The notes: generated by a model from the sequence alone, not told the origin. A stretch of 12,453 nt of DNA from a virus (IMGVR_UViG_2526164669_000031); one strand, 5' to 3'; shown: positions 1 through 12,453, numbered from the stretch's first letter. Numbers and translations: made by a program.

Positions 1-1260
1 ATGAAGCTCAACGCCAGACAGGTCGAGACCGCAAAGCCAAAAGACAAAACCTACAAAATGGCCGATGGTGGTGGTTTGTATCTTGAGGTTTCGGCCAAAG
101 GTTCCAAATACTGGCGCATGAAATACAGACGTCCCTCTGACAAAAAAGAGGATCGTCTCGCCTTTGGTGTTTGGCCTACTGTGACGCTTGCTCAGGCAAG
201 AGCAAAACGCGATGAAGCTAAAAAGCTTTTAGTACAGGGCATAGACCCAAAAGTCGTACAAAAAGAAGCTCAGGCCGAGAATTCGGGGGCATATACTTTT
301 GAAACTATCGCCCGAGAATGGCATGCCAGTAACAAGCGCTGGAGTGAAGACCATCGAGCGCGCGTTCTTCGCTATCTTGAGCTTTATATCTTCCCTCATA
401 TCGGTTCGTCCGACATTCGGCAGCTTAAAACCAGCCACCTGTTAGCCCCGATTAAAAAAGTTGATGCCAGTGGCAAACACGATGTCGCTCAGCGCCTGCA
501 ACAGCGCGTCACAGCCATTATGCGTTATGCCGTACAGAACGATTACATCGACTCAAATCCAGCCAGCGATATGGCTGGTGCACTATCGACAACCAAAGCG
601 CGCCATTATCCTGCTTTACCTTCTAGCCGGTTCCCTGAGTTTCTTGCACGTCTTGCTGCATATCGTGGTCGCGTAATGACGCGGATTGCGGTTGAGCTTT
701 CCTTACTAACTTTTGTGCGTTCCAGTGAGTTACGTTTCGCGCGTTGGGATGAGTTTGATTTCGATAAATCTCTCTGGCGAGTACCTGCAAAACGAGAAGA
801 AATTAAAGGAGTGCGTTATTCGTACCGTGGCATGAAGATGAAAGAAGAGCATATCGTTCCGCTTAGTCGGCAAGCGATGATTTTGCTAAACCAGTTAAAG
901 CAGATTAGTGGTGATAAAGAACTGCTTTTTCCGGGGGATCATGACGCAACTAAGGTTATGAGTGAAAATACAGTAAATAGCGCATTGCGTGCGATGGGCT
1001 ATGACACGAAAACCGAAGTTTGCGGGCACGGGTTTAGAACGATGGCGCGTGGAGCATTAGGGGAATCAGGCTTATGGAGTGATGATGCGATTGAACGTCA
1101 GCTAAGTCACTCAGAACGTAATAATGTACGTGCTGCTTATATTCATACATCTGAGCATTTAGACGAAAGGCGTTTAATGATACAGTGGTGGGCAGATTAT
1201 TTAGATAGAAATAAGAAAGAAAGTATTACACCATATGATTTTGCTAGACAACTTAAATAG
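1..1260 (+). CDS. int: Tyrosine recombinase, P4-type integrase
   Basis: 419-aa ORF. The N-terminus (AKPKDKTYKMADGGGLYLEV...KYWRMKYR) is typical of P4-family integrase arm-binding domains. The C-terminus has HGFR and RAAYIH motifs consistent with the tyrosine recombinase catalytic H-x-x-R and Y. ATG at position 1, stop TAG at 1258-1260. Confidence 0.9.
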   Translation: MKLNARQVETAKPKDKTYKMADGGGLYLEVSAKGSKYWRMKYRRPSDKKEDRLAFGVWPTVTLAQARAKRDEAKKLLVQGIDPKVVQKEAQAENSGAYTFETIAREWHASNKRWSEDHRARVLRYLELYIFPHIGSSDIRQLKTSHLLAPIKKVDASGKHDVAQRLQQRVTAIMRYAVQNDYIDSNPASDMAGALSTTKARHYPALPSSRFPEFLARLAAYRGRVMTRIAVELSLLTFVRSSELRFARWDEFDFDKSLWRVPAKREEIKGVRYSYRGMKMKEEHIVPLSRQAMILLNQLKQISGDKELLFPGDHDATKVMSENTVNSALRAMGYDTKTEVCGHGFRTMARGALGESGLWSDDAIERQLSHSERNNVRAAYIHTSEHLDERRLMIQWWADYLDRNKKESITPYDFARQLK

Positions 1261-1266
1261 TATTTT

Positions 1267-1304
1267 AACCTAGCCAGAATTTTTGTAGTCTCGCTGGCTA
1301 GGTT
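1267..1304. terminator. Inverted repeat (11-bp arms AACCTAGCCAG / CTGGCTAGGTT, 16-nt loop) between convergent int and cargo genes; possible bidirectional terminator
   Basis: Arms at 1267-1277 and 1294-1304 are perfect reverse complements. It lies in the 54-bp gap between the int stop (1260) and the stop of the minus-strand gene (1315). There is no clean U-run on either side, so terminator function is uncertain. Confidence 0.35.
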
Positions 1305-1314
1305 AATTTAAAAG

Positions 1315-1899
1315 CTAATCATTCACATCAAGAGTTAAGAGTGCGTGCATTCTTTTAACAATCATAATGATATTCAAAATTAAATGTACGCAAACATATA
1401 TTATGAGTGGGCATAAAAAATAGTATAACACATTTAATTTTAGAGTTGTGTTTATTATGCTGACATAATATTCATGTGTTTTGCCGTAAAAGAATCCTGA
1501 TTGATTGACAGGAAACAGTGATACTATAAAACACAACACGACTAACAAAACTCCACATAAAATTGAATAACAAATGTTATAATAAAGTTCAGTGAGTAAT
1601 GCTTTCTTTGATTCATAGAATGTATCAATATCTTTTCTTTGTCTTATTTTTGATTCTTGATCATATACTAAAACAAGAACGCTAAGCAGTAATGCTGTTA
1701 GTATTGCACTGAAATTAACTAATAATGATATTAAATCTTTTGTTATACCACTTCCTAGGAGTGAGAATGCGGCAGAAATAATAAATGGTAGTATTATGAA
1801 TGTAAATATATCCCATAAACTGATCTTATTAGTGTCAGCATTTTTTAAAGTTCTGAAGTGGCCTATAAGAACTTCGCATATATTTATCTTTGAACTCAT
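1315..1899 (-). CDS. Hypothetical integral membrane protein (194 aa, about 4 predicted TM helices); second gene of the AT-rich cargo cassette
   Basis: Four hydrophobic segments of about 20-25 aa (approx. residues 28-50, 56-78, 105-128, 155-180) separated by charged loops. The ATG at 1899..1897 overlaps the upstream gene's stop as TAATG. An SD-like AAGGAGAG lies 5-6 nt upstream. Stop TAG at 1317..1315. Visibly AT-rich relative to the P4 backbone. Confidence 0.7.
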   Translation of the reverse strand: MSSKINICEVLIGHFRTLKNADTNKISLWDIFTFIILPFIISAAFSLLGSGITKDLISLLVNFSAILTALLLSVLVLVYDQESKIRQRKDIDTFYESKKALLTELYYNICYSILCGVLLVVLCFIVSLFPVNQSGFFYGKTHEYYVSIINTTLKLNVLYYFLCPLIIYVCVHLILNIIMIVKRMHALLTLDVND

Positions 1900-2825
1900 T
1901 ACGCTCTCCTTATAGTAACACCACGATATAACAACTGTATATATTCCATGATAATAACATCAACAAAATTATTTAGTGATGCTATTTCCGGCATGCCATC
2001 ATAAAAAACAACTTGTTCTTCATCAAATAAAATTTCACATACAGCTCCCCTTGCTGTTGTTCCAATATGAAAAGTTCTTTTTCTGCCATTATCTAATTCA
2101 ACAACTGTTTTTACTGTTTCTCCATATTCTTTAAGGACTTCAACGAGTTGATATTGCTCCGAGCCTCTGGAGAAATAGTCTCGAAGTCTTCCAAGTCCTG
2201 CATTTCGAGGCGGTTTGATAATTAATTCTTGCTCGTTATGGCCTAGCTTTTTGGCTTGTTCAGCTACATCTGTAATGCCATGGAATTTAGTTACCTTGAT
2301 TTCTTTGGTAATGGCATCCATCCATTTTTCAATCGCTTTATCATACGCCAGAGGGTTCATTTGAATCACTAAGTTGGTAATCCTCTTGAAATAATCTGAA
2401 AACAATCTCATAAAAAGAGTTTTTATACCATCACCTCTATAGGTATGTAAAAACGCCATGCCTTCATTTACATCTCTAGGAATATAAAAATGTATGTAAT
2501 ATCTAATTATTTCAGCATTGTTTTTTGTCTTTTCGAAGTCTACATCGCCAGTTTCAATGTTTATTATGTCGGTCTTTGTTCCGTAATATCCAGACTCGAA
2601 CCATCCATATATTTCTCGATTGTTGTTATCGCGTGTAATCTCATTAAAACGAAAAACTTGTTTGGTTTCTTCAGAAAGGATATATTCTTCATTATACTGC
2701 TTAATAAATTCATCGAGTATATCAAGTAAATCATGTTCTCTGATGTTACTCAGTGCTGAATAACGTTGTTCTTTGGCTGCGTTCGGATTGTAGCAGCGGA
2801 AAAGATACGGTGCTAAAGCGTGCAT
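1899..2825 (-). CDS. Hypothetical soluble protein (308 aa), first gene of the AT-rich cargo cassette; function unknown
   Basis: Long uninterrupted ORF in an AT-rich region where random ORFs are rare. Strong SD (AAGGAGAT) 5-6 nt upstream of the ATG at 2825. Translationally coupled to the downstream membrane-protein gene. I see no Walker A or other clear catalytic motif. Confidence 0.75.
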   Translation of the reverse strand: MHALAPYLFRCYNPNAAKEQRYSALSNIREHDLLDILDEFIKQYNEEYILSEETKQVFRFNEITRDNNNREIYGWFESGYYGTKTDIINIETGDVDFEKTKNNAEIIRYYIHFYIPRDVNEGMAFLHTYRGDGIKTLFMRLFSDYFKRITNLVIQMNPLAYDKAIEKWMDAITKEIKVTKFHGITDVAEQAKKLGHNEQELIIKPPRNAGLGRLRDYFSRGSEQYQLVEVLKEYGETVKTVVELDNGRKRTFHIGTTARGAVCEILFDEEQVVFYDGMPEIASLNNFVDVIIMEYIQLLYRGVTIRRA

Positions 2826-3059
2826 TGTTATCTCCTTTTTTAATGGAGATTAGCAACTTATCACTATAAGATCAACGAACGTTCAATATGGAAAGGGATA
2901 ATTCTGCTTGGTATTTTTCTTTTAATAATATTGGGGTGCTTTAGTGCGATATTTTGATGATTAGTGTGTGTTCGGCAGTAGAAGCTATCCATAGGCAGTG
3001 ATGTTTCTGCATATAGAATGTTTTAATTATCAAACACATAATTTTCGATTGCGCGCGCA

Positions 3060-3078
3060 GTGCTTTCCCCGCCTCGCC
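3060..3078. other. cos site: P2/P4-type 19-nt cohesive-end sequence
   Basis: GTGCTTTCCCCGCCTCGCC at 3060-3078 is the exact reverse complement of the P2/P4 cohesive end GGCGAGGCGGGGAAAGCAC as I recall it. It is followed by a GC-rich hairpin (CCGCCC...GGGCGG, 3078-3097) and a T-run. Confidence 0.7.
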
Positions 3079-3180
3079 CGCCCGCTTTGCAGGGCGGTTT
3101 TAATGCAGTTGCACAGTCACGCTCAGGCTGCGCCGGGAATGGCGCGGTCTGCAGAGAATGAGGCAGGAAAACGCATGCAA

Positions 3181-3213
3181 AGCCATGCACCTTATCGATG
3201 CATGGCTTTTTTC
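3181..3213 (+). terminator. Hairpin plus T-run (intrinsic-terminator-like) between cos and the 3' end of psu
   Basis: Arms AGCCATGCA (3181-3189) and TGCATGGCT (3199-3207) with a 9-nt loop, followed by TTTTTT on the plus strand. The orientation fits a plus-strand terminator better than a terminator for psu. Confidence 0.4.
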
Positions 3214-3242
3214 AGTAAAAACGGGCGGATTTTCGGGGAATT

Positions 3243-3815
3243 TTACACAGACTGACGTGATGCCAGTTGCGCACTTTTACGCGAAAAAATCATGTTCTGC
3301 GCAGGAGTGAATTTTTCACGGCTGTCATCCACCGAAGCCGCGTCAGGCCTGAATCCGATGGTCGTTAAAATGTCGCTATCCTGTGCGGAATAATTAATTT
3401 TTTCCCCCTTCGCAAGCCAGGACAGAAGGGCTTCACGCAGGGCATCTGTGGCACGCTGTATGGCACAGTTTCGGGCAATGGCCGTCAGCTCACTGTAGCC
3501 CATCAGCTCCGCTGCCAGTGCCGCCGCCAGTGCTGTGCCGTGCTGCTGCATAAAATCATTCAGCCGGTCGCGGATGCTGATGTGCTGAACGGCTTCATGC
3601 GAACGAATATAACGACCGGCGGCCTGATTCACCTGCCATTTTCTGACTTCGATAATATTGCGTAATTCGTCCAGGCGACTGACGTTTCTGCCTTCTCCTG
3701 ACAGAAGCCGCAGATATTCCTGTTCGGCCGCAGCCAGCTCATTTTTGCGTTGCAGCCATGCTGCTTTGTTATTCTGACAGGTGTCAAAGGCCTGCTGTAA
3801 GGCTGTGCTTTCCAT
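3243..3815 (-). CDS. psu: Psu (polarity suppression / capsid decoration protein), P4-like
   Basis: 190 aa, the length I recall for P4 Psu. Position is immediately downstream of delta in the sid-delta-psu operon. ATG at 3815..3813. Confidence 0.85.
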   Translation of the reverse strand: MESTALQQAFDTCQNNKAAWLQRKNELAAAEQEYLRLLSGEGRNVSRLDELRNIIEVRKWQVNQAAGRYIRSHEAVQHISIRDRLNDFMQQHGTALAAALAAELMGYSELTAIARNCAIQRATDALREALLSWLAKGEKINYSAQDSDILTTIGFRPDAASVDDSREKFTPAQNMIFSRKSAQLASRQSV

Positions 3816-3888
3816 CGTTATCTCTTTCTCATCATGCTGAAGAATAAAAATACGGTGTGTGGCGACGGCCGGTGTTAACCGGCAGCCC

Positions 3889-4389
3889 TCATTCCAGACG
3901 CAGCGAATATGATTGTGTTTTTAACCGTACTGGCGGCAGTTCCTGTTTTTCATGCAGGCGTTCTGCCAGTTCGTCCGGCGTGACCGGGCGGACAATGAAG
4001 CGGGTGATGGTCTGAAGCGTTTTAAACACCAGACCACAGCCCGGATCCGTGCACACATAAAAACGCTCGGTGACTTCCTGAGACAGACGCCGCGATGTTC
4101 TTGACAGTGCAAGGCCTTTACATCTCCGACAACAATATCCGGTAACAAGCATTCTTTTCGGCCGTTTCATACTGCCGGAGGCCGACGTCAGTGAATCGCG
4201 GTATCTCTGTTTGCCTGAAATGTATTCCATTCCTGAATCTTTACTGTCAGAGAAAAAGCTTTCACTCGCTTCAAATGTCGCAGAGCAATAAATATTCCGG
4301 CACTGTGCAATCATTATCTTGGTGCCATCGTCCATGAAATGTGCGCGACGGGTGTGAGCAACATGTCCACACGACGGGCAGTAAATCAT
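3889..4389 (-). CDS. delta: Delta, late-gene transcriptional activator (tandem Ogr-like zinc-finger domains)
   Basis: 166 aa. Two Cys4 zinc-finger modules are visible (CPSCG...CRNIYC and CCRRC...CTDPGCG). The ATG overlaps the sid stop as ATGA at 4386-4389. Confidence 0.9.
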   Translation of the reverse strand: MIYCPSCGHVAHTRRAHFMDDGTKIMIAQCRNIYCSATFEASESFFSDSKDSGMEYISGKQRYRDSLTSASGSMKRPKRMLVTGYCCRRCKGLALSRTSRRLSQEVTERFYVCTDPGCGLVFKTLQTITRFIVRPVTPDELAERLHEKQELPPVRLKTQSYSLRLE

Positions 4390-5120
4390 GACAGCAGTCC
4401 TCTGGCCTTAAGCTCTGCTCCCTGCTGGTCTATTTTGTCCTGCCACACCTTGCGCTGTGCCGGTGTGCCTGCCACCTCATAATCCATGTGCGGGAGTGTT
4501 GCCGCTGACAGTCCGGCCAGCCGGAGAACCGGCTCGCCGGTGAGGCTGATTTGCATCTGTTTAATTTTCTGTTCCAGCGATGATTTCACCTGCTGCATGA
4601 CAGCCTTATCGGGTGCGACGTAGCCCTGATGGCCGGTGGTGTTGGCGAGCGGATTTTCCTGTACCAGGATTCTCAGATGCATTGCCCGGACAAGCGCCTC
4701 ACAGGTTTCATTCAGGGCGTGTTCCAGCTCATGCTCTGCATACAGACTCAGAAGGTGATGATGTGCCTTCCGGTAGGCGGTGGCCGTGCTGTCACACGCC
4801 CCTTTCAGGCGTTCACGTTCGAAATTCAGCACCACGGCCAGATTGTCATATTCCTGTACCAGCTCCCGGCGTGCCACGCGCTCAATGTGGCGCTGTTTCA
4901 GCTCGTCGCTCAGGACACCACCGGCTGCACGAAAGGCCGTGCGCCAGTCGTCAGCGTCATTTCCGTCGGCCTGCGCCAGCGCATTTTTTTCCTGCTCTGC
5001 CCGTTCAATGGCCGTGACGGTCTCATCCATCAGGCGGGCGTTCTCAAGGTGGGCGGCTCTGGCCTTTTCCAGTTGTGCCAGTGCGGGTTGCAGATATTCA
5101 GGGATGGTGTTGTCAGACAT
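4386..5120 (-). CDS. sid: Sid (capsid size determination external scaffold), P4-like
   Basis: The track ORF 4386..5138 begins with a GTG. The in-frame ATG at 5120..5118 (MSDNTIPEYLQ...) gives 244 aa, the recalled P4 Sid length, and has a GAGGAG SD 7 nt upstream. The protein is coiled-coil rich and is the first gene downstream of the late-promoter motifs. Confidence 0.85.
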   Translation of the reverse strand: MSDNTIPEYLQPALAQLEKARAAHLENARLMDETVTAIERAEQEKNALAQADGNDADDWRTAFRAAGGVLSDELKQRHIERVARRELVQEYDNLAVVLNFERERLKGACDSTATAYRKAHHHLLSLYAEHELEHALNETCEALVRAMHLRILVQENPLANTTGHQGYVAPDKAVMQQVKSSLEQKIKQMQISLTGEPVLRLAGLSAATLPHMDYEVAGTPAQRKVWQDKIDQQGAELKARGLLS

Positions 5121-5154
5121 TTTCCGGCTCCTCGTCACTTCAGGTTAAGAAAAT

Positions 5155-5210
5155 TGTGACGTACACCGGACAACAACACGACGCATTGCAGATGTGCCAG
5201 CCCTGACACA
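5155..5210 (-). promoter_or_regulatory. Psid-like late promoter region with two TGT-N12-ACA activator (Delta/Ogr) sites
   Basis: Exact TGT-N12-ACA dyads at 5155-5172 and 5193-5210. Relative to a minus-strand start near 5146 they would be centred at about -18 and -55, the arrangement I recall for P4 late promoters. The sid ATG is at 5120. Confidence 0.6.
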
Positions 5211-5289
5211 GGAGACTCATCCTCAGACCGGCAAGCCAGGAAAAGGTCGCAGGAAAAACCGGCTTACTGTTTGTTTTTTTATGTTTTAC

Positions 5290-5393
5290 TGTTCACCTCT
5301 GTTCACCTTAATAAAAAAGATAAGTAATACAGTAAGTTAAAGGGTGAACAATCGCAGTAATGACTGTTCACCGTCTGTTCACCACTGTTCACC
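5290..5393. repeat. Iteron cluster (six copies of TGTTCACC/GGTGAACA); putative ori for the alpha protein
   Basis: TGTTCACC at 5290, 5300, 5365, 5376 and 5386, and inverted GGTGAACA at 5343. The same octamer recurs in the crr-like repeats downstream of alpha. The AT-rich tract 5400-5500 is adjacent. Confidence 0.7.
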
Positions 5394-5551
5394 CGTTGAT
5401 GGGCTTTTTATGCTGTTTATTACTGTTTATTTTTATTAATTAACTGAAATAAATAAGAAAAAACAATTTGCATTTCACTATAAAAAATTCCAGGTCCTTC
5501 AGAACCCTTTGAGACCCTTCCAGTCCGGATGGATAAAAAACACACAGCCAT

Positions 5552-5569
5552 TGTAAGGTTGCCGGAACA
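5552..5569 (+). promoter_or_regulatory. PLL-like late promoter activator site (TGT-N12-ACA) upstream of vis
   Basis: Exact TGT-N12-ACA at 5552-5569. It would be centred about 55 nt upstream of a plus-strand start near 5615, leaving a 57-nt leader to the vis ATG at 5672. Confidence 0.5.
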
Positions 5570-5671
5570 AATTCCCCCTGTTGCGTCTGCTGAAAATATT
5601 CACAAAATAAAGCGCTACCCGAAGCCGGACGGACTTATCCGGTGCTGTATGGACATTAACGAGGTAGCCCG

Positions 5672-5938
5672 ATGCAAGCTGTTTTTTCTTCCCCGTCTCC
5701 CGCCCCTGTTACGCCACTGATGCCGCTGCCGGACATCACGCAGGAGCGTTTTTTACGTCTGCCGGAAGTGATGCACCTGTGCGGCCTGTCACGCTCGACC
5801 ATCTATGAACTCATCCGTAAGGGGGAATTTCCGCCGCAGGTGAGTCTTGGCGGTAAAAATGTGGCCTGGCTGCACTCTGAAGTCACCGCATGGATGGCCG
5901 GACGCATTGCCGGACGCAAACGGGGGTACGACGCATGA
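5672..5938 (+). CDS. vis: AlpA/Vis-family small DNA-binding protein (excisionase-like late regulator)
   Basis: 88 aa. The C-terminal two-thirds ([47 protein letters not shown]) is a typical AlpA-family helix-turn-helix. GAGG SD 7 nt upstream of the ATG at 5672. An alternative in-frame start at 5720 would give 72 aa. Confidence 0.8.
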
Positions 5939-6066
5939 TGATGCCCGCTCTGCAAAAACGCCCTTTTTCTGGCTTGCCTTTTTCCGGCATTTGCGGATAT
6001 AGTTTTTCCGCTGCCGCAAAATCGGCAGCCGGGCGTGAGAACCCGTGTAACTCGAAGGCGACATAT

Positions 6067-6088
6067 GACGCGCCATGCGTCTTTTTTT
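6067..6088 (+). terminator. Intrinsic-terminator-like hairpin (GACGC-GCCAT-GCGTC followed by 7 T) in the immunity-like region
   Basis: 5-bp GC-rich stem at 6067-6071 / 6077-6081 with a 5-nt loop, then TTTTTTT at 6082-6088. It lies inside a long frame-1 ORF (5890-6525) of doubtful coding value. Confidence 0.4.
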
Positions 6089-6327
6089 GTGTCGCAATCA
6101 ACGCCACAGAGCGCCAGATTATGGTGTGGCGTGTGGTTTGCCGTGCAGGTATGATCCTGTTCGCAATCGCATGTTATGCCACTGAGTCAATGGTAGCTCA
6201 GGCGGGGCAGCCTCCGGGCTGGCCGGTATTCTTCGAGGCCGGTATTCTCACCCCCGTCTGGGCTATCGCCATCGAGCGTGAGAACTCCGGCGATAGCAGT
6301 TATTTGCTACTCGAAGGAGACTGCCTT

Positions 6328-6525
6328 ATGGCTACAACCCTTACCCCCTCACACCCTGAATTTGTCTTTGTGTTTGCGGCTGTCCGTCGCGCAGACCGTC
6401 ATCCCCGTATCTGTATGCTTCGCACCGTCGCCGGTGATGAACGCAGCGCCCGCCGTTCCCTTGTCCGTGACTATGTGCTCTCCCTTGCTGCCCGTCTGCC
6501 GGTGGTGGAGGTGTCCCGTGCGTAA
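6328..6525 (+). CDS. Hypothetical small protein (65 aa) immediately upstream of epsilon
   Basis: ATG at 6328 is preceded by a strong SD (AAGGAGA, 6314-6320). Its stop TAA at 6523-6525 overlaps the putative GTG start of the next gene. Confidence 0.35.
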
Positions 6526-6805
6526 TAAAAAAGCCCCTCAGACCGTCTCAGCGCGTCATGACGCCCGTGAACACCTCAGCATTGAGGCTTACCATAAGCT
6601 CAACCGCGCCAGCGCCGTATCCCGGTTTGTTGGGGGTGATTTGATTCACCGTGAACTCTCAGGCCTGCATCAGCTCTACATTCCGCATATTTTCAGCTAC
6701 CTGAATGAAGATATTGATTTTGTGCTGAATGAGCTGAAAGCCAAAGGCCTGTGCCGCGATTTTCTCGCCCAGCAGAAAGACCGGGGAGACAGGACGCATG
6801 TTTGA
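6518..6805 (+). CDS. Epsilon-like protein (candidate helper-prophage derepression factor), 95 aa from a GTG start
   Basis: GTG at 6518 with GGAGG 6 nt upstream gives 95 aa, the length I recall for P4 epsilon. The track ORF begins at an upstream GTG (6278) in the same frame. The stop overlaps the next gene's ATG (ATGTTTGA at 6798-6805). Confidence 0.5.
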
Positions 6806-7253
6806 TTTTCCCCAGCCCGGTGAGATTTACCGTTCTGCCGGTTTTCCCGATGTGGCCGTGGTCGGCATTCTGGAAGACGGTATTCCGTGGGAAATGCCGT
6901 ACCGCTGCCCGGACATTGTCTGGAACCCGTACCGCCGTAAATTCAGTATCCTTGTGCGTATCCTCGATGACGGGCGCACCACAGACATCCCGCTGGGGCG
7001 TTTTCTGCGGGAATTTACCTGTGACCGTCCTGACCTGTTTAAACGCAGCCCCGTAAACCGGCATGCGGTACTGAAAGAAATGGCCGGAGACCCGGAATTA
7101 CAGAAATGGCGGGAGAAATATCTGGATATTTACCCGCAGGACCCTGTTCCGGTCAGCCGGGCGGCACCGGTGGCGCGGGAATGGCGGGAAATTCCCCGCA
7201 CGGAGCCTGACCCGGAAATCACCCCGGATAACAGTTACCGCAATTATCTGTAA
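6798..7253 (+). CDS. Hypothetical protein, P4 orf151-like
   Basis: 151 aa, SD GGGGAGA upstream, translationally coupled to the upstream gene, and at the position of orf151 in the P4 left operon. Confidence 0.7.
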   Translation: MFDFPQPGEIYRSAGFPDVAVVGILEDGIPWEMPYRCPDIVWNPYRRKFSILVRILDDGRTTDIPLGRFLREFTCDRPDLFKRSPVNRHAVLKEMAGDPELQKWREKYLDIYPQDPVPVSRAAPVAREWREIPRTEPDPEITPDNSYRNYL

Positions 7254-7388
7254 TTAAAAAACGACACCCGAAAAATTAAATGTGCGTATTCGCGCAGGGA
7301 TACGCACGTCTTCAGGAGACGCAGATATGCCTTATCAGTTAATGCAACCGGCACGGAATGCAGTCATCTGTCACAGGGAGGAAAACAA

Positions 7389-7709
7389 ATGAAAACACCC
7401 TTACCGCCCGTCTTACGCGCTGCCCTTTACCGTCGCGCTGTCGCCTGTGCCTGGCTGACCGTGTGCGAACGTCAGCACCGCTACCCGCATCTCACCCTTG
7501 AGTCACTGGAGGCGGCCATCGCCGCTGAGCTGGAAGGCTTTTATCTGCGCCAGCACGGTGAGGAAAAAGGGCGTCAGATAGCCTGTGCCCTGCTGGAAGA
7601 TTTAATGGAATCCGGCCCCCTGAAGGCCGCGCCGTCGCTGTCCTTTCTCGGGCTGGTTGTGATGGATGAACTCTGTGCCCGTCACATAAAAGCGCCGGTA
7701 CTGCACTGA
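7389..7709 (+). CDS. Hypothetical protein, 106 aa (P4 orf106-like)
   Basis: ATG at 7389 with GGGAGG SD (7375-7380). Ends 15 nt before the alpha gene. Confidence 0.65.
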
Positions 7710-7723
7710 AGGAGAACAACACC

Positions 7724-10057
7724 ATGAAAATGAACGTAACTGCCACCGTCAGCCATGCGCTCGGCCACTGGCCGCGTATTCTCCCGTCGCTGGGGATTCA
7801 GGTGCTGAAGAACCGTCATCAGCCCTGTCCGGTCTGTGGCGGAAGTGACCGCTTCCGTTTTGATGACAGGGAGGGGCGCGGCACCTGGTACTGCAATCAG
7901 TGTGGTGCCGGTGACGGCCTGAAACTGGTTGAAAAGGTGTTTGGTGTTTCCCCGTCCGACGCGGCCGCAAAGGTGGCTGCCGTGACCGGCTGCCTGCCCC
8001 CGGCTGACCCGGCAGTGACGGCCGCCGCCGGTGCTGAAACAGAAGCCGCCCGGAAGAACGCCGCCGCACTGGCACAAACCCTGATGGCGAAAACCCGTCC
8101 CGGAACCGGTAACGCCTACCTGACCCGCAAGGGCTTTCCCGGCCGGGAATGCCGGATGCTGACCGGCACACACAGAGCCGGTGGCGTGAGCTGGCGCGCC
8201 GGTGACCTTGTGGTGCCACTGTATGACGACAGCGGCGAACTGGTTAACCTTCAGTTAATCAGTGCTGACGGCCGTAAGCGCACCCTGAAAGGCGGACAGG
8301 TCAGGGGCACCTGTCACACCCTTGAAGGACAGAATCAGGCCGGAAAACGTCTGTGGATAGCGGAGGGATATGCGACCGCACTTACCGTACATCACCTGAC
8401 CGGGGAAACGGTGATGGTGGCGCTTTCTTCCGTGAACCTCCTTTCTCTGGCCAGCCTTGCCCGGCAGAAGCACCCCGCCTGTCAGATTGTCCTTGCTGCT
8501 GACCGTGACCTCAGCGGTGACGGCCAGAAAAAAGCCGCCGCAGCCGCAGATGCGTGTGAAGGTGTTGTTGCCCTGCCACCGGTCTTCGGTGACTGGAATG
8601 ATGCCTTCACGCAGTACGGCGGGGAGGCCACCCGTAAGGCCATTTATGATGCCATCCGGCCACCGGCTGAAAGCCCGTTCGACACCATGAGCGAAGCGGA
8701 GTTTTCCGCCATGAGTACCAGCGAAAAGGCCATGCGTATCTATGAGCATTACGGCGAGGCGCTCGCGGTCGATGCCAACGGCCAGCTTCTGTCCCGCTAT
8801 GAAAATGGTGTCTGGAAGGTGCTGCCGCCACAGGACTTTGCCCGGGATGTGGCCGGGCTGTTTCAGCGGCTGCGTGCGCCGTTCTCCTCCGGGAAGGTGG
8901 CCTCCGTGGTGGACACCCTGAAGCTGATTATTCCGCAACAGGAAGCCCCCTCCCGCCGCCTGATTGGCTTTCGTAACGGCGTGCTCGACACGCAGAACGG
9001 TACGTTCCACCCGCACAGTCCGTCACACTGGATGCGCACCCTGTGCGATGTGGATTTCACCCCGCCGGTGGAAGGGGAAACGCTGGAAACCCACGCCCCC
9101 GCGTTCTGGCGCTGGCTTGACCGTGCTGCCGGTGGTCGTGCGGAAAAACGCGACGTGATTCTGGCCGCACTGTTTATGGTGCTGGCAAACCGCTACGACT
9201 GGCAGCTCTTTCTGGAGGTGACCGGTCCCGGCGGCAGCGGCAAAAGTATCATGGCCGAAATAGCCACCCTGCTGGCCGGGGAGGATAACGCCACGTCGGC
9301 CACCATCGAGACGCTGGAATCCCCGCGTGAACGTGCCGCGTTAACTGGCTTCTCACTGATACGCCTGCCGGACCAGGAAAAATGGAGCGGCGACGGTGCC
9401 GGACTCAAGGCCATCACCGGCGGCGATGCGGTGTCCGTTGACCCGAAATACCGGGATGCGTACTCCACGCACATCCCGGCGGTGATTCTGGCCGTGAACA
9501 ATAACCCGATGCGCTTCACCGACCGCAGCGGCGGCGTGTCACGCCGGCGGGTGATTATTCACTTCCCGGAACAGATAGCCCCGCAGGAGCGCGACCCGCA
9601 GCTTAAGGACAAAATCACCCGCGAGCTGGCGGTCATCGTGCGTCACCTGATGCAGAAATTCAGCGACCCGATGCTCGCCCGGTCACTGCTTCAGTCCCAG
9701 CAGAACTCAGACGAGGCACGGAACATCAAACGGGATGCCGACCCGACGTTTGATTTTATCGGCTATCTGGAAACCCTGCCGCAGACCAGCGGCATGTATA
9801 TGGGGAACGCCAGTATCATCCCGCGTAATTACCGTAAATACCTCTATCACGCCTATCTGGCCTACATGGAGGCAAACGGCTACCGGAATGTACTCAGTCT
9901 GAAAATGTTCGGGCTGGGGCTGCCGGTGATGCTGAAGGAATACGGACTGAATTACGAGAAGCGCCATACCAAACAGGGGATACAGACCAACCTGACGCTG
10001 AAAGAGGAAAGCTACGGCGACTGGCTGCCAAAATGTGACGACCCTGCAACAACCTGA
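7724..10057 (+). CDS. alpha: Alpha protein: primase-helicase with origin-binding domain
   Basis: 777 aa, the recalled length of P4 alpha. N-terminal zinc-binding primase motif (CPVCGGSDRFRFDDREGRGTWYCNQCGAG), a TOPRIM-like segment (IAEGYATAL...VLAADRD) and a Walker A motif (GPGGSGKS, nt about 9226-9249). SD GAAGGAGA at 7708-7715. Confidence 0.95.
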   Translation: MKMNVTATVSHALGHWPRILPSLGIQVLKNRHQPCPVCGGSDRFRFDDREGRGTWYCNQCGAGDGLKLVEKVFGVSPSDAAAKVAAVTGCLPPADPAVTAAAGAETEAARKNAAALAQTLMAKTRPGTGNAYLTRKGFPGRECRMLTGTHRAGGVSWRAGDLVVPLYDDSGELVNLQLISADGRKRTLKGGQVRGTCHTLEGQNQAGKRLWIAEGYATALTVHHLTGETVMVALSSVNLLSLASLARQKHPACQIVLAADRDLSGDGQKKAAAAADACEGVVALPPVFGDWNDAFTQYGGEATRKAIYDAIRPPAESPFDTMSEAEFSAMSTSEKAMRIYEHYGEALAVDANGQLLSRYENGVWKVLPPQDFARDVAGLFQRLRAPFSSGKVASVVDTLKLIIPQQEAPSRRLIGFRNGVLDTQNGTFHPHSPSHWMRTLCDVDFTPPVEGETLETHAPAFWRWLDRAAGGRAEKRDVILAALFMVLANRYDWQLFLEVTGPGGSGKSIMAEIATLLAGEDNATSATIETLESPRERAALTGFSLIRLPDQEKWSGDGAGLKAITGGDAVSVDPKYRDAYSTHIPAVILAVNNNPMRFTDRSGGVSRRRVIIHFPEQIAPQERDPQLKDKITRELAVIVRHLMQKFSDPMLARSLLQSQQNSDEARNIKRDADPTFDFIGYLETLPQTSGMYMGNASIIPRNYRKYLYHAYLAYMEANGYRNVLSLKMFGLGLPVMLKEYGLNYEKRHTKQGIQTNLTLKEESYGDWLPKCDDPATT

Positions 10058-10064
10058 CCCACCT

Positions 10065-10088
10065 GACCGGCATCTGCCGGTCTTTTTT
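10065..10088 (+). terminator. Rho-independent terminator of the alpha operon
   Basis: GACCGG-CATCTG-CCGGTC hairpin (10065-10082) followed by TTTTTT (10083-10088), 8 nt after the alpha stop. Confidence 0.7.
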
Positions 10089-10104
10089 ATCCCTGAATTC
10101 CCCG

Positions 10105-10406
10105 CAGGTGAACAATCCACTGTTCACCCTTCACCGTATATTCACCCGTTATCACACTGAAATTAAAAGAGAAAAATGAAAGGTGAACAGTGTGAACAAT
10201 CAAATCAAAAAAAACTTTTTTTCTCCCTGTGTGATTTTCAGTGCAGGGGACTAATCGCCGGTATGAGTCACACCGGCAGAATGCCGGAGGTGAAGAATCG
10301 AATGTTCACCCTTCACCCATTATTCACCACCTATCACTCTGAAATAAAAGGAGAAAACAGAAAGGTGAACAGTGTGAACAGTTCTTTCGAAAAAAAATTT
10401 TTTATG
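10105..10406. repeat. crr-like cis replication region: two direct repeats of about 120 bp, each carrying TGTTCACC-type iterons and ending in an A/T tract
   Basis: Repeat 1 is about 10105-10228 and repeat 2 about 10287-10406. They share GGTGAA..ATGTTCACCCTTCACC...GAAAGGTGAACAGTGTGAACA and a terminal A(7-8)T(6-8) tract. Iterons at 10107, 10121, 10182, 10303 and 10364, with TGTGAACA variants at 10191 and 10373. Confidence 0.75.
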
Positions 10407-10424
10407 TGGATAAAAGATGCACTG

Positions 10425-10451
10425 GTTTGGATCCGAGCTACGGATCCAAAC
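10425..10451. repeat. Perfect palindrome GTTTGGATCCG-AGCTA-CGGATCCAAAC (11-bp arms)
   Basis: Arms at 10425-10435 and 10441-10451 are exact reverse complements. No adjacent U-run. Located between crr and the attR-like sequence. Confidence 0.5.
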
Positions 10452-10594
10452 TTACTGATTAAAAATGATTTAACTTTCCGATTTATTGATGGGCTGAAAA
10501 TAGATTGGTCAGAAAAACAGTGGGGGCACAAAAGGGGGCATATTTCATTGTTGTGTTTTATTATTTGTTTTTTTATCATTAACTTATTTTGATG

Positions 10595-10634
10595 TTTGAG
10601 TCCGGCCTTCGCACCTTCGCACCTTCGCACCATC
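10595..10634 (+). other. attR-like remnant of a tRNA 3' end (T-arm and acceptor end) with a triplicated CCTTCGCAC 9-mer
   Basis: TTTGAGTCCGGCCTTCGCACC...CACCA resembles the T-arm and acceptor end of tRNA-Leu (leuX; recalled 3' end ...GTTCGAGTCCGGCCTTCGGCACCA), the known P4 target. CCTTCGCAC occurs three times in tandem (10606-10632). The sequence is in the same orientation as int. Confidence 0.55.
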
Positions 10635-10647
10635 GGAACATCAATAG

Positions 10648-10667
10648 ACGTCAACGGACGTTTTTTT
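10648..10667 (+). terminator. Small hairpin plus T7 run directly after the tRNA-like fragment (possible native tRNA terminator)
   Basis: ACGTC-AACG-GACGT (10648-10661) followed by TTTTTTT. The stem is only 5 bp. Confidence 0.35.
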
Positions 10668-10833
10668 ATGACTGAAATCCGCGCCACACAAGGCTTTTCG
10701 CTATTTTTCGCTCAACCTAAGTCAACCTACATCAACTTACTGATGTGGATACAGCTACAGCTGCGGCTATATCCCGATTCGATAATGTTTGTACCCACAC
10801 AAAACCCTTGAAAGGCTACAAGGCTGAAATTCT

Positions 10834-11019
10834 CTAAACCATAGAGATGATTTTTATGATCCAGTCTTTCTCTTGTTGAGATAGTTCCAGTTTGCTCACT
10901 CGTGTTAAGAAGGTATTGATCACCTGAACATCCGAATTGGTGAGCCTATTTAATAGAGTGGGTGGTATACCTTTACTAACTATTGCTTTGCGGTGACTTT
11001 CGTAGTTTTTATTACTCAT
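10834..11019 (-). CDS. Short ORF (61 aa) in the AT-rich chromosomal flank; possible gene fragment
   Basis: ORF only. It is in a different frame from the adjacent 77-aa ORF, so the pair may be a decayed gene. No recognisable motif. Confidence 0.2.
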   Translation of the reverse strand: MSNKNYESHRKAIVSKGIPPTLLNRLTNSDVQVINTFLTRVSKLELSQQEKDWIIKIISMV

Positions 11020-11084
11020 TGGTGATCCTCAAATATCATTGTATGGCGGCATTGATCGTTTCCAGCAACCTTTACTTACTCACT

Positions 11085-11318
11085 TCAAACTGCATCCTCG
11101 TAGACTGTTCCACTACAATAATCGAAAAGGCGTGGATGTCCATTCAGGTATCCCGCTAATACGTATAGCAATAACAATGGCTTATGCGGCGCGCGCTGTT
11201 CACCCTTGTGCCAGATTTTTATATTGGCAATTGCCTGCTGTAGCGATTTACTGGAAGCCATTGATATCCCTGGCAGTGAAATAATTGCGATCATGCTCGC
11301 AAATTTTCGGCTGTTCAA
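11085..11318 (-). CDS. Short ORF (77 aa) in the chromosomal flank; possible gene fragment or pseudogene
   Basis: ORF only. It sits downstream of and on the same strand as the nanS-like gene, in an AT-rich stretch. Confidence 0.25.
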   Translation of the reverse strand: MNSRKFASMIAIISLPGISMASSKSLQQAIANIKIWHKGEQRAPHKPLLLLYVLAGYLNGHPRLFDYCSGTVYEDAV

Positions 11319-11472
11319 GCCTGCAAGTGAAGATATATTACTTTGATCTCATTTGTTTTTTTGCTGCCTGTGTACCCTAATTGCCATGCGATGCTGCACC
11401 GACGCTAACCACCGTTTACGCCGGAGGAGTTAAAAGCGTTGATGGATGCGAATAAATCAAATTAATGAACGC

Positions 11473-12453
11473 TCACTTTTCGCCCCAAAACTGCAAAATT
11501 GCTTCTACAAACCTGTCAGAAATAATCCCCCGACGGGCTGCCGCGCTGAAATGACTGCTTCGCAGTGCCGTCGTCCAGTTCTCCGGTGACCGGTACGCTG
11601 AACCGTAATATCCCGTGCTTAAATCGTCCGGGTCTTCATCAGGCGCGTTCGTCAGTCCTCTTTCACCTTGTTGCTGGAAGTCGACGAAAATAATATTGGC
11701 TAAAACATTATTTTGATAATTGCCATAAATAACTTCATACGCATGAGGGAAATTTTCTTTCCAGTACCAGGTGGTATCGCCGCAAAACCACGGCGCGTCA
11801 GTAATATTATTAAGCTGAGAATGGTATTGTTTTAGATCCCTACGAAAGGCTTCAATCATATGATTAAAGTGTTGAGGGTGTGACGCGTAGTCACTGGTCA
11901 TTAAGTCAAATTCGCCTTGCATCCAGCATACGCCGAGGAATTTGTTCTGCGGATTTTTTGCCAGTGCGGCTCGCGTTCTGCTGACTAAATCCTGGTACAG
12001 CGGAGTATCCGTTCCCCAACGACAAGCATCATGGCTGGCTCCGTGCCGTTCTGAATATGTCCCTTCGCTGCCCGCGGTAAAAGCCGATCCGCCACGGCAA
12101 CATGGAACGATGAGAACCCCTGCATTATCAGGAATAAAGGGTAGTAATTTCCGTGCAATATGCAGTGCCTGGCCAACGGTGCCGTACTGTGTTTGATGAT
12201 TCGTTGCCAGAGGATGGTGATAACCCTGCATATCCTGAACATCGTGTGGGCAGTGAGTCAGTGGAATAATGTCGTTAAAGTGACATGACGGGCCTCCGGG
12301 ATGCGTATGCGCAAATCTCGCTAATTGTTTAATTCTGGGATGAGGCGCATCTTCCCTGTCCGGTAATGGCAGTCCTTCGCCATACGCCATGGCATTAGAC
12401 TGACCAGCAACGGTAAGAACATAGTAATAATCGGGCGATATTATTGCGTTCAT
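11473..12453 (-). CDS. nanS: Sialate O-acetylesterase (SGNH/SASA-family), NanS-like; the start codon is at the window edge
   Basis: 326 aa. An N-terminal GQSN(A)MAYGEG motif is characteristic of SGNH/SASA esterases. Length and sequence are consistent with E. coli NanS (YjhS) as I recall it. ATG at 12453..12451. Confidence 0.7.
   Translation of the reverse strand: MNAIISPDYYYVLTVAGQSNAMAYGEGLPLPDREDAPHPRIKQLARFAHTHPGGPSCHFNDIIPLTHCPHDVQDMQGYHHPLATNHQTQYGTVGQALHIARKLLPFIPDNAGVLIVPCCRGGSAFTAGSEGTYSERHGASHDACRWGTDTPLYQDLVSRTRAALAKNPQNKFLGVCWMQGEFDLMTSDYASHPQHFNHMIEAFRRDLKQYHSQLNNITDAPWFCGDTTWYWKENFPHAYEVIYGNYQNNVLANIIFVDFQQQGERGLTNAPDEDPDDLSTGYYGSAYRSPENWTTALRSSHFSAAARRGIISDRFVEAILQFWGEK

Follow-up and report, generated by a model that had tools for sequence, protein, structure and literature searches.

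Sequence evidence for a gene-complete P4-family satellite prophage at leuX of Escherichia coli with a candidate RexAB-type cargo pair

The DNA analysed in this study (IMGVR_UViG_2526164669_000031, 12,453 nucleotides) is referred to as the window, and all coordinates are counted from its first letter. Positions 1–10632 can be read with good confidence as a gene-complete ("Type A") satellite prophage of the P4 family that sits in the E. coli chromosome at the 3' end of leuX, a tRNA-Leu gene; a RexAB-type function is our guess for its cargo, and its mobility is assumed by homology. The backbone is almost that of P4, and no feature outside known P4 biology was found in it. A first-pass annotation had placed the end of the prophage at 10634, which is correct since the right attachment site (attR) occupies 10598–10632.

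P4-like prophages of other genomes, called natural copies below, were used as the comparison set beside the P4 reference (NC_001609 / X51522, 11,624 bp). In blastn alignments, window 3079–10618 was 97.5% identical to P4 11624–4075 over 7,555 columns, and window 1–1210 was 94.0% identical to P4 3914–2704. The gene order along the window is that of integrated P4, namely int, a low-GC insert, cos, psu-delta-sid, Psid/ori/PLL, vis through alpha, crr and attR; the insert (1261–3050) has a GC content of 30–35%. The distance between the equivalent att positions is 10,780 bp, that is, 93% of the P4 length. The P4 reference contains gop, beta and cII, which are absent from the window, their place being taken by the cargo at 1315–2825; gene order, core genes, cos, Psid/PLL, the ori/crr iterons, the cI RNA, the Int arm sites and the leuX target are common to both. 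The integrity of genes and sites, the co-variation of the immunity boxes, and the pairing and mobile-element context of the cargo genes were observed directly in the sequences compared.

The whole window matched the chromosome of E. coli OkiPb01675, isolated from bovine faeces in Okinawa (NZ_AP042478.1, 5052297–5064749), with 99.98% identity, the differences being one substitution and two homopolymer-length changes. In OkiPb01675 the corresponding stretch extends from a point 164 nt past the leuX tRNA-Leu gene to the nanS/nanM region. The element is present in several cattle and human isolates that are independent of one another. Strains OkiPb01716 and 13E0767 contain an otherwise 98.9% identical element with the same cargo, in which ISEc12 (IS21 family) lies between cnr and alpha; it parts alpha from the operon and adds about 2.6 kb (8010–10609 of the extracted OkiPb01716 locus). 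The copy in the window is free of ISEc12.

The protein-coding genes of the backbone are the following:

1–1260, plus strand: int, P4-type tyrosine integrase of 419 aa, 399 residues identical to P4 Int
3243–3815, minus strand: psu, polarity suppression and capsid decoration, 188/190 residues identical to P4
3889–4389, minus strand: delta, late-gene transactivator with a double Ogr-type zinc finger, 163/166 identical to P4
4386–5120, minus strand: sid, capsid size determination, 240/244 identical to P4, overlapping delta by 4 nt
5672–5938, plus strand: vis (orf88, alpA), excisionase and late-promoter regulator, 87/88 identical to P4
5935–6525, plus strand: eta/kil reading frame, Icd-like, containing the immunity region, Pfam Phage_ASH (E 8.5e-22)
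6518–6805, plus strand: epsilon, derepression of the helper prophage, 95/95 identical to P4, Pfam Derepression (E 9e-51)
6798–7253, plus strand: orf151, 148/151 identical to P4
7389–7709, plus strand: orf106 (cnr), copy-number control, 106/106 identical to P4
7724–10057, plus strand: alpha, primase, helicase and origin-binding protein, 766/777 identical to P4

Global protein alignments showed that psu, delta, sid, vis, epsilon, orf151, cnr and alpha have the P4 lengths, 97–100% identity to their P4 counterparts and zero internal stops or frameshifts. Indels in the 7.5-kb core were confined to non-coding positions (single-base changes in ori, terminator and crr DNA) or to the eta leader, where they are in-frame or compensating. 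The overlapping starts and stops of delta/sid, vis/eta, eta/epsilon and epsilon/orf151 do not differ from those of P4, nor do the Shine-Dalgarno sequences. All three Pfam domains of Int are complete (arm-binding, residues 3–89; central, 100–194; catalytic, 223–384), the arm-binding match beginning at residue 3 and covering model positions 1–82 of 83. All eight zinc-ligand cysteines of the two Ogr-type fingers of delta are kept, and the motifs of alpha are intact (zinc, 35–40 and 57–61; EGYATA, 214–219; Walker A, 501–508). All seven Type A components (Integrase, Psu, Delta, Sid, AlpA/Vis, Epsilon/ash-region and Alpha) are thus present. The first-pass annotation had described the P4 core genes as full-length, with Shine-Dalgarno sequences and coupled overlaps and without frameshifts or internal stops, and the protein-by-protein alignment to P4 agrees with this. 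Truncations or inactivating substitutions in int, alpha, delta and sid, named there as what would speak against completeness, were looked for in the same alignment and none was evident, so the observation of genetic completeness is confirmed.

Three departures from the P4 reference could be taken for lesions. The P4-annotated Int has 439 aa; its 4 extra N-terminal codons are located just upstream of window base 1. Up to residue ~403 the window Int is identical to P4 Int at 396 of 403 positions, and the tails diverge thereafter. Truncation was rejected: the tail of the window protein (...ITPYDFARQLK) matches the ...ITPYDF... tails of five other natural P4-like integrases, which are 419–422 aa long, and it is the P4 reference that is the outlier. 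Likewise, the change C72G in delta was rejected as a loss of a zinc ligand, the position being in the linker; GS at 72–73 is the natural consensus, present in 6/6 natural copies, and the reference has CG. The eta/kil frame is open and encodes 196 aa, as compared with 199 in P4, owing to an in-frame 9-nt deletion. Neither this deletion nor a +1/−1 indel pair in the eta leader was accepted as a lesion, given that the frame is kept and the allele occurs in three other natural elements. The V30L change in vis is present in 6/6 natural copies.

The P4 reference positions 2607–2700 (Int tail) and 10524–10532 (delta 72–73) are therefore outliers with respect to the window and five natural prophages, and in both places the window follows the natural consensus from which the reference departs. 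These oddities may be true strain differences or old (1990) sequencing errors. Several differences from P4 are thus peculiarities of the 1990 reference and not lesions, which matters when P4 serves as the yardstick of intactness.

Being intact is not in itself exceptional. The first-pass annotation had regarded an intact copy as the unusual case, but all seven core components were found in 502 of 1037 P4-like sets (Moura de Sousa & Rocha 2021, PMC8628076), and complete sets are common. As in the P4-like Type A satellites (PMC8628076; hotspot, PMC9122126), the window has all seven components in their canonical arrangement, and the variable cargo lies between cos/psu and int; no categorical difference from these satellites was seen. 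A natural E. coli isolate thus holds a P4 satellite as complete as the laboratory reference, with cargo in the hotspot; such cases are ordinary and have been described before, and the claim to special interest from intactness alone is weak.

The immunity region differs from that of P4 in its specificity. The roles given here for cI, for seqA, seqB and seqC, for kil/eta and for the alpha domains follow the summary in PMC10111431 together with general P4 knowledge. The elements identified in the window are:

6010–6087, plus strand: leader element with the seqA target box (6051–6058) and a terminator, Rfam isrK RF01394, 70.7 bits
6186–6273, plus strand: cI immunity RNA with the seqB box (6229–6236), Rfam C4 antisense RNA RF01695, 74.3 bits, full length
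6310–6317, plus strand: seqC target box (CTCGAAGG), complementary to the element's own seqB

The Rfam scores of the cI RNA and of the leader equal or exceed those of P4, and a match to RF03163 (c4 targets) was found at 5997–6049. The window boxes are CTCGAAGG (seqA), TCTTCGAG (seqB) and CTCGAAGG (seqC), whereas those of P4 are TTCACAGG, CCTGTGAA and TTCACAGG, respectively; all three 8-nt boxes have changed together, giving another specificity. The predicted duplex of seqB had −20.6 kcal/mol with its cognate seqC as compared with −11.8 kcal/mol with the seqC of P4, and over the predicted duplexes the cognate pairs were 6–9 kcal/mol more stable than the crossed ones. Among seven elements (the window, P4 and five natural prophages) four box types were found, and the three boxes co-varied without exception. 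A second co-varying box (GTGAGA/TCTCAC or GTAGGA/TCCTAC) was seen in the same seven elements, and the window combines the 8-nt box of two other natural prophages with the second box of P4. The three-way co-variation points to continuing selection on a functional RNA-RNA immunity circuit. The element is probably heteroimmune to laboratory P4, judging from the box sequences, and the occurrence of four co-varying types among seven elements could help to predict heteroimmunity between satellites.

The sites for packaging, late transcription and replication (no strand unless given) are also conserved:

3053–3123: packaging site cos, in common with P2; its 19-nt cohesive end (3060–3078) is the exact reverse complement of GGCGAGGCGGGGAAAGCAC
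5155–5172: Psid late promoter, TGT-N12-ACA activator box, within a region (5139–5282) identical to P4
5290–5393: ori, six type I iterons (TGTTCACC / GGTGAACA), 6/6 conserved
5552–5569: PLL late promoter, TGT-N12-ACA box, both half-sites kept, spacer unlike that of P4
10065–10088, plus strand: alpha terminator, aligned to P4 t-alpha with a difference only in the length of the T-run
10102–10403: crr, cis replication region, two 120-bp direct repeats with iterons, both repeats and iterons present

The cos core common to P2 (3053–3113, ~60–70 nt) is 93–95% identical to P2 cos. Homology to P4 stops about 27 nt past the cohesive-end cut, which is the start of the variable hotspot.

Since the window starts after the left attachment site (attL) and the int promoter, attL was read in the 99.98% identical OkiPb01675 genome. 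There, the exact 20-nt core GAGTCCGGCCTTCGGCACCA, corresponding to the 3' end of tRNA-Leu, is found 164 nt before int, and next to it lies the int-side arm of P4, arm repeats included. On the right side the window contains (no strand):

10520–10543: two Int arm-type binding repeats of the attR arm, identical to P4 4151–4174
10598–10632: attR core, non-canonical, composed of GAGTCCGGCC, three copies of TTCGCACC and A, the first 14 nt being those of the attL/attP core

Both attP of the reference and leuX hold a perfect 20-nt core, whereas the attR core of the window lacks one G and has its 8-nt unit in triplicate. In other E. coli strains the TTCGCACC unit is present in 1, 2, 3 or 4 copies, and only beside the right flank ATCGGAACATC. 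The G-less core in single copy (GAGTCCGGCCTTCGCACCA) was found at every natural attR examined beside a P4-type arm, and the perfect core at none of them; ten IMG/VR loci with at least 5 different right flanks contain it, and at least 6 flanks are known overall. Since the G-less core is universal in the natural attR sites, the missing G is not a decay particular to the window copy. The attP of natural satellites may be G-less, with strand exchange within the final ~5 bp of the tRNA gene, in contrast to textbook P4 with its perfect 20-bp core; alternatively, a displaced G-less fragment of the tRNA gene may be perpetuated in the chromosomes. This systematic difference between the attP core of the reference and the attR cores of natural prophages came as a by-product of the analysis. 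With regard to the check for excision-competent att sites advised in the first-pass annotation, the exact attL core is present in the near-identical genome, the attR core is non-canonical although its G-less form may be normal, and no attP-form junction was found in the collections searched.

A natural empty site was identified in strain HCP6S3_I1, in which an intact leuX is directly followed by the remnants located downstream of the element in the window. These remnants (10634–11470) derive from genes of a phosphorothioate-sensing (SBD-HNH) endonuclease and an HNH endonuclease, annotated as pseudogenes by PGAP at 11112–11261 and 11343–11405, and both endonuclease types are typical P4-hotspot cargo. 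Because the same remnants adjoin leuX in the empty site, they belong to an older decayed island and not to the satellite.

The proposed cycle follows that of P4. In the lysogen, the cI RNA would pair with seqA and seqC of the PLE leader, early transcription would be terminated and the element would stay silent. Upon infection by, or induction of, a P2-family helper, the helper Ogr/Cox proteins together with the satellite Delta and Epsilon would activate Psid and PLL. Vis and Int would excise the element, Alpha would replicate it from ori/crr, and P2 procapsids would be reshaped by Sid and Psu into the small form. The terminase of P2, acting at the common cos site, would then cut and package the ~10.8-kb genome, including the cargo. 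Excision and helper-dependent transfer are plausible by homology to P4 biology, and mobilisation of the cargo with the satellite by a helper is a reasonable and plausible suggestion, consistent with the sequences. For the helper, composite queries were made of the rare cargo DNA and either P2 gpN or P2 gpP, and scored by counts of matching places. Both queries (cargo+gpN and cargo+gpP) gave three places each in OkiPb01675, OkiPb01716 and 13E0767, and one or two in the other four cargo-carrying genomes. OkiPb01675 thus probably carries two P2-family loci with capsid/terminase genes, and a resident helper is plausible.

Several results weigh against a functional, mobile prophage. The putative helper prophages are judged from place counts and not from located loci. 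The imperfect attR core described above may impair excision, or excision may damage leuX. A search of 5,426 E. coli genomes, PLSDB and IMG/VR revealed no attP-form junction, whether excised, plasmid or tandem: a synthetic attP query gave zero places spanning both arms in the 5,426 genomes, the pattern scan of IMG/VR gave no match, and PLSDB gave one irrelevant match. In addition, comparison with P4 and six natural copies revealed nine missense changes private to the window copy:

alpha: A22S, S90C, D107E, D450E, L666R
sid: S150R, T202A
psu: P102A
orf151: A57D

Of these, L666R is located in the C-terminal third of alpha, which we take to be the DNA-binding domain.

Such results would suit an element that is gene-complete on paper but is a fixed resident of leuX, vertically inherited and diversified by homologous recombination between P4-like elements. 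This explanation, which we hold to be quite unlikely, can draw on the imperfect attR core, the missing attP-form junction and the private changes in alpha, sid and psu, and also on the location of the element at leuX in 7/7 cargo-carrying genomes. The right junction (TTCGCACC repeats and the ATCGGAAC flank) is moreover common to many strains with different cargo and even a different left arm, and int with the cargo occurs on backbones of different immunity types, as expected from module swapping. Thus, in strain 2022E04-002 the integrase is identical and the cargo nearly so, yet the backbone around them has P4-type immunity and another eta allele, a mismatch indicating recombinational exchange of the int and cargo module among satellite backbones. 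Against a fixed resident stand the evident purifying selection on all coding and cis functions, the existence of a natural empty site, and the presence of the same cargo family in P4-like hotspots of other genera. The G-less core with the P4-type arm beside at least 6 right flanks fits transfer of the satellite between chromosomes, and P4-like elements are known to spread horizontally (PMC8628076). It is exceedingly improbable that the similarity reflects laboratory P4 or a recent contaminant; the very high identity to the reference would agree with this, but such an origin is refuted by the junctions, which show chromosomal integration between leuX and nanS-side DNA. The cargo, the immunity type and the Int tail are also unlike those of laboratory P4, and the independent cattle and human isolates likewise point to a natural prophage. 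A gene-complete natural satellite remains the preferred reading.

The cargo of this satellite, located between cos/psu and int in what is known as a defence hotspot, consists of two coupled genes:

1899–2825, minus strand: cargo gene 1, encoding a 308-aa cytoplasmic protein for which a RexA/RdgC-like DNA-clamp fold is predicted
1315–1899, minus strand: cargo gene 2, 194-aa membrane protein with four hydrophobic segments of transmembrane length, a RexB-like role being proposed
1261–1314, no strand: inverted repeat (CCTAGCCAG...CTGGCTAGG), seen on inspection of the sequence where int and the cargo converge, likely a bidirectional terminator

The pair has a strong Shine-Dalgarno sequence, and the start of gene 2 overlaps the stop of gene 1 (TAATG). 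The hydropathy segments of the 194-aa protein are at about residues 27–47, 56–78, 104–129 and 156–182. The cassette had been called novel in the first-pass annotation; Table S1A of Rousset et al. 2022 (PMC9122126), however, already contains the exact pair (WP_000543069 and WP_000095574) under "hypothetical + hypothetical". In that study a P4 satellite with hotspot cargo was found in 26% of the E. coli genomes analysed. The pair matches none of the systems named in a 2026 follow-up (PMC13586616), in which 6/8 random unknown loci, taken from the untested genes of the P4 hotspot, were protective; uncharacterised genes at this place thus mostly prove to be defences, which favours such a role for the cargo. 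Among 5,426 complete E. coli genomes the pair was present in seven, each time at leuX.

The 308-aa protein belongs to a large family. An indexed search gave 91 matches, and with clustering at 50% identity at least 1,361 representatives were obtained at E ≤ 1e-3. Both cargo proteins fall in PHROGs families of "unknown function". Ten distant relatives of the 308-aa protein gave no Pfam match at E ≤ 1, and the window protein itself gave none at E ≤ 0.1. A homologous membrane partner of ~180–194 aa follows the homologue of the 308-aa protein in 7/7 other loci inspected, the partners in Vibrio and Pseudomonas being 50–52% identical to the 194-aa protein. The two genes overlap in these loci as well, and the genomic contexts of the homologues were as follows:

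Salmonella: psu-int hotspot of P4-like satellites
Pectobacterium: P4-like satellite, at the site equivalent to delta-int, with no psu called
Pseudomonas: end of a prophage
V. cholerae: beside a filamentous prophage
Shewanella: island

Our best guess for the cargo, based in part on a predicted structure, is a RexAB-type abortive-infection module. RexA was the single best structural match to the predicted model of the 308-aa protein, and the next matches were the published structural neighbours of RexA. A profile of the family (76 sequences) aligned with a RexA-family profile (24 sequences) over 108 collinear columns with E 2.3e-4. A RexA-like fold was thus found in the model of the soluble component, and a partner with four transmembrane segments is encoded downstream of it. 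The pair shares with rexA-rexB of lambda the coupled order of genes, the soluble protein first and the membrane protein second. RexB of lambda (RexA-RexB, 8TWQ, PMC11077077) also has four transmembrane segments, but the lambda partner has 144 aa as compared with 194 aa in the cargo, and lambda rexA-rexB adjoins the cI repressor gene whereas the cargo is located in the satellite hotspot. In the RexABpp pair of a P. putida prophage (PP_5643-5644), HHpred linked PP_5643 to RexA with 98% probability, and membrane damage depends on the partner (PMC12894663); the comparison of the cargo with RexABpp is drawn from the published description, and the profile of the cargo family reached only 44% against RexA. 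By analogy, the phage would give rise to a DNA or protein-DNA signal that is sensed by the 308-aa protein; this protein would then activate its 194-aa membrane partner, which would permeabilise or depolarise the membrane and so halt growth of the infected cell.

The assignment has considerable points against it. The similarity of fold spans 158 of the 308 residues of the predicted model, and the structural alignment with RexA has ~6% identity. Foldseek of the model against the PDB gave nothing below E 0.009, with TM ≤ 0.25, and a profile search against PDB sequences gave no match. The hhalign probability against the RexA family (44%) is under the usual homology threshold, and narrow hhalign alignments against single lambda RexA or RexB gave no signal (RexB probability 0.2%). 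Neither cargo protein was assigned to a family by PADLOC, Pfam or NCBIfam, including the Pfam RexA/RexB and PADLOC Rex models; the 308-aa protein lies outside Pfam RexA (PF15969) and its 194-aa partner has no RexB Pfam match. The evidence is suggestive of a pair working like RexAB without being filed in the RexA and RexB sequence families.

These same negatives (the lack of Pfam RexA/RexB and PADLOC matches and the low hhalign probability) would be expected if the cargo were something else, such as a membrane toxin with a cytoplasmic antitoxin, an envelope superinfection-exclusion pair or a Kiwa-like system, sharing a common alpha/beta fold with RexA. Kiwa (KwaA-KwaB) likewise pairs a four-transmembrane protein with a soluble protein of ~300 aa, and another strain carries it at this P4 hotspot. 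The order of the cargo genes is nevertheless that of rexA-rexB and not that of kwaA-kwaB, and the KwaB/DUF4868 and PADLOC Kiwa models gave no match. A chance resemblance of folds would also have to account for RexA as the top structural match followed by the structural neighbours of RexA itself, and a function other than RexAB is considered rather unlikely. The RexAB-type reading can be carried further, tentatively and a little short of what we would call probable: the cargo may represent a large unnamed branch of RexAB-type abortive-infection systems on satellites, prophages and islands across Gammaproteobacteria. If so, lambda Rex would be one small twig of widespread defences pairing a soluble DNA clamp with a membrane effector. 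The proposal provides a testable assignment for a pair catalogued only as "hypothetical + hypothetical" and belonging to a very large unannotated family.

A few minor features were also recorded. A 138-aa open reading frame at 10176–10592 (plus strand) was rejected as a gene, since it overlaps crr and the attR arm and has no family match; it is annotated as a GeneMark-only coding sequence in the P4 RefSeq entry and as "integrase" or "hypothetical" in other genomes, and is probably not a gene. Beyond the satellite, a 326-aa open frame at 11473–12453 (minus strand), the start of which coincides exactly with the end of the window, resembles the sialate O-acetylesterase NanS; PGAP calls only 11887–12453 of it, as an incomplete pseudogene. 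An extra exact TGTTCACC octamer is present at 11197, outside the element in the remnant region, and may mean nothing, ~0.4 being expected by chance. Upstream of PLL, three 10-nt repeats (CCTTCAGAAC / CCTTTGAGAC / CCTTCCAGTC) at 5497–5526 replace the three 10-nt "ori type 2" repeats of P4, and a third variant of these repeats is found in strain 2022E04-002.

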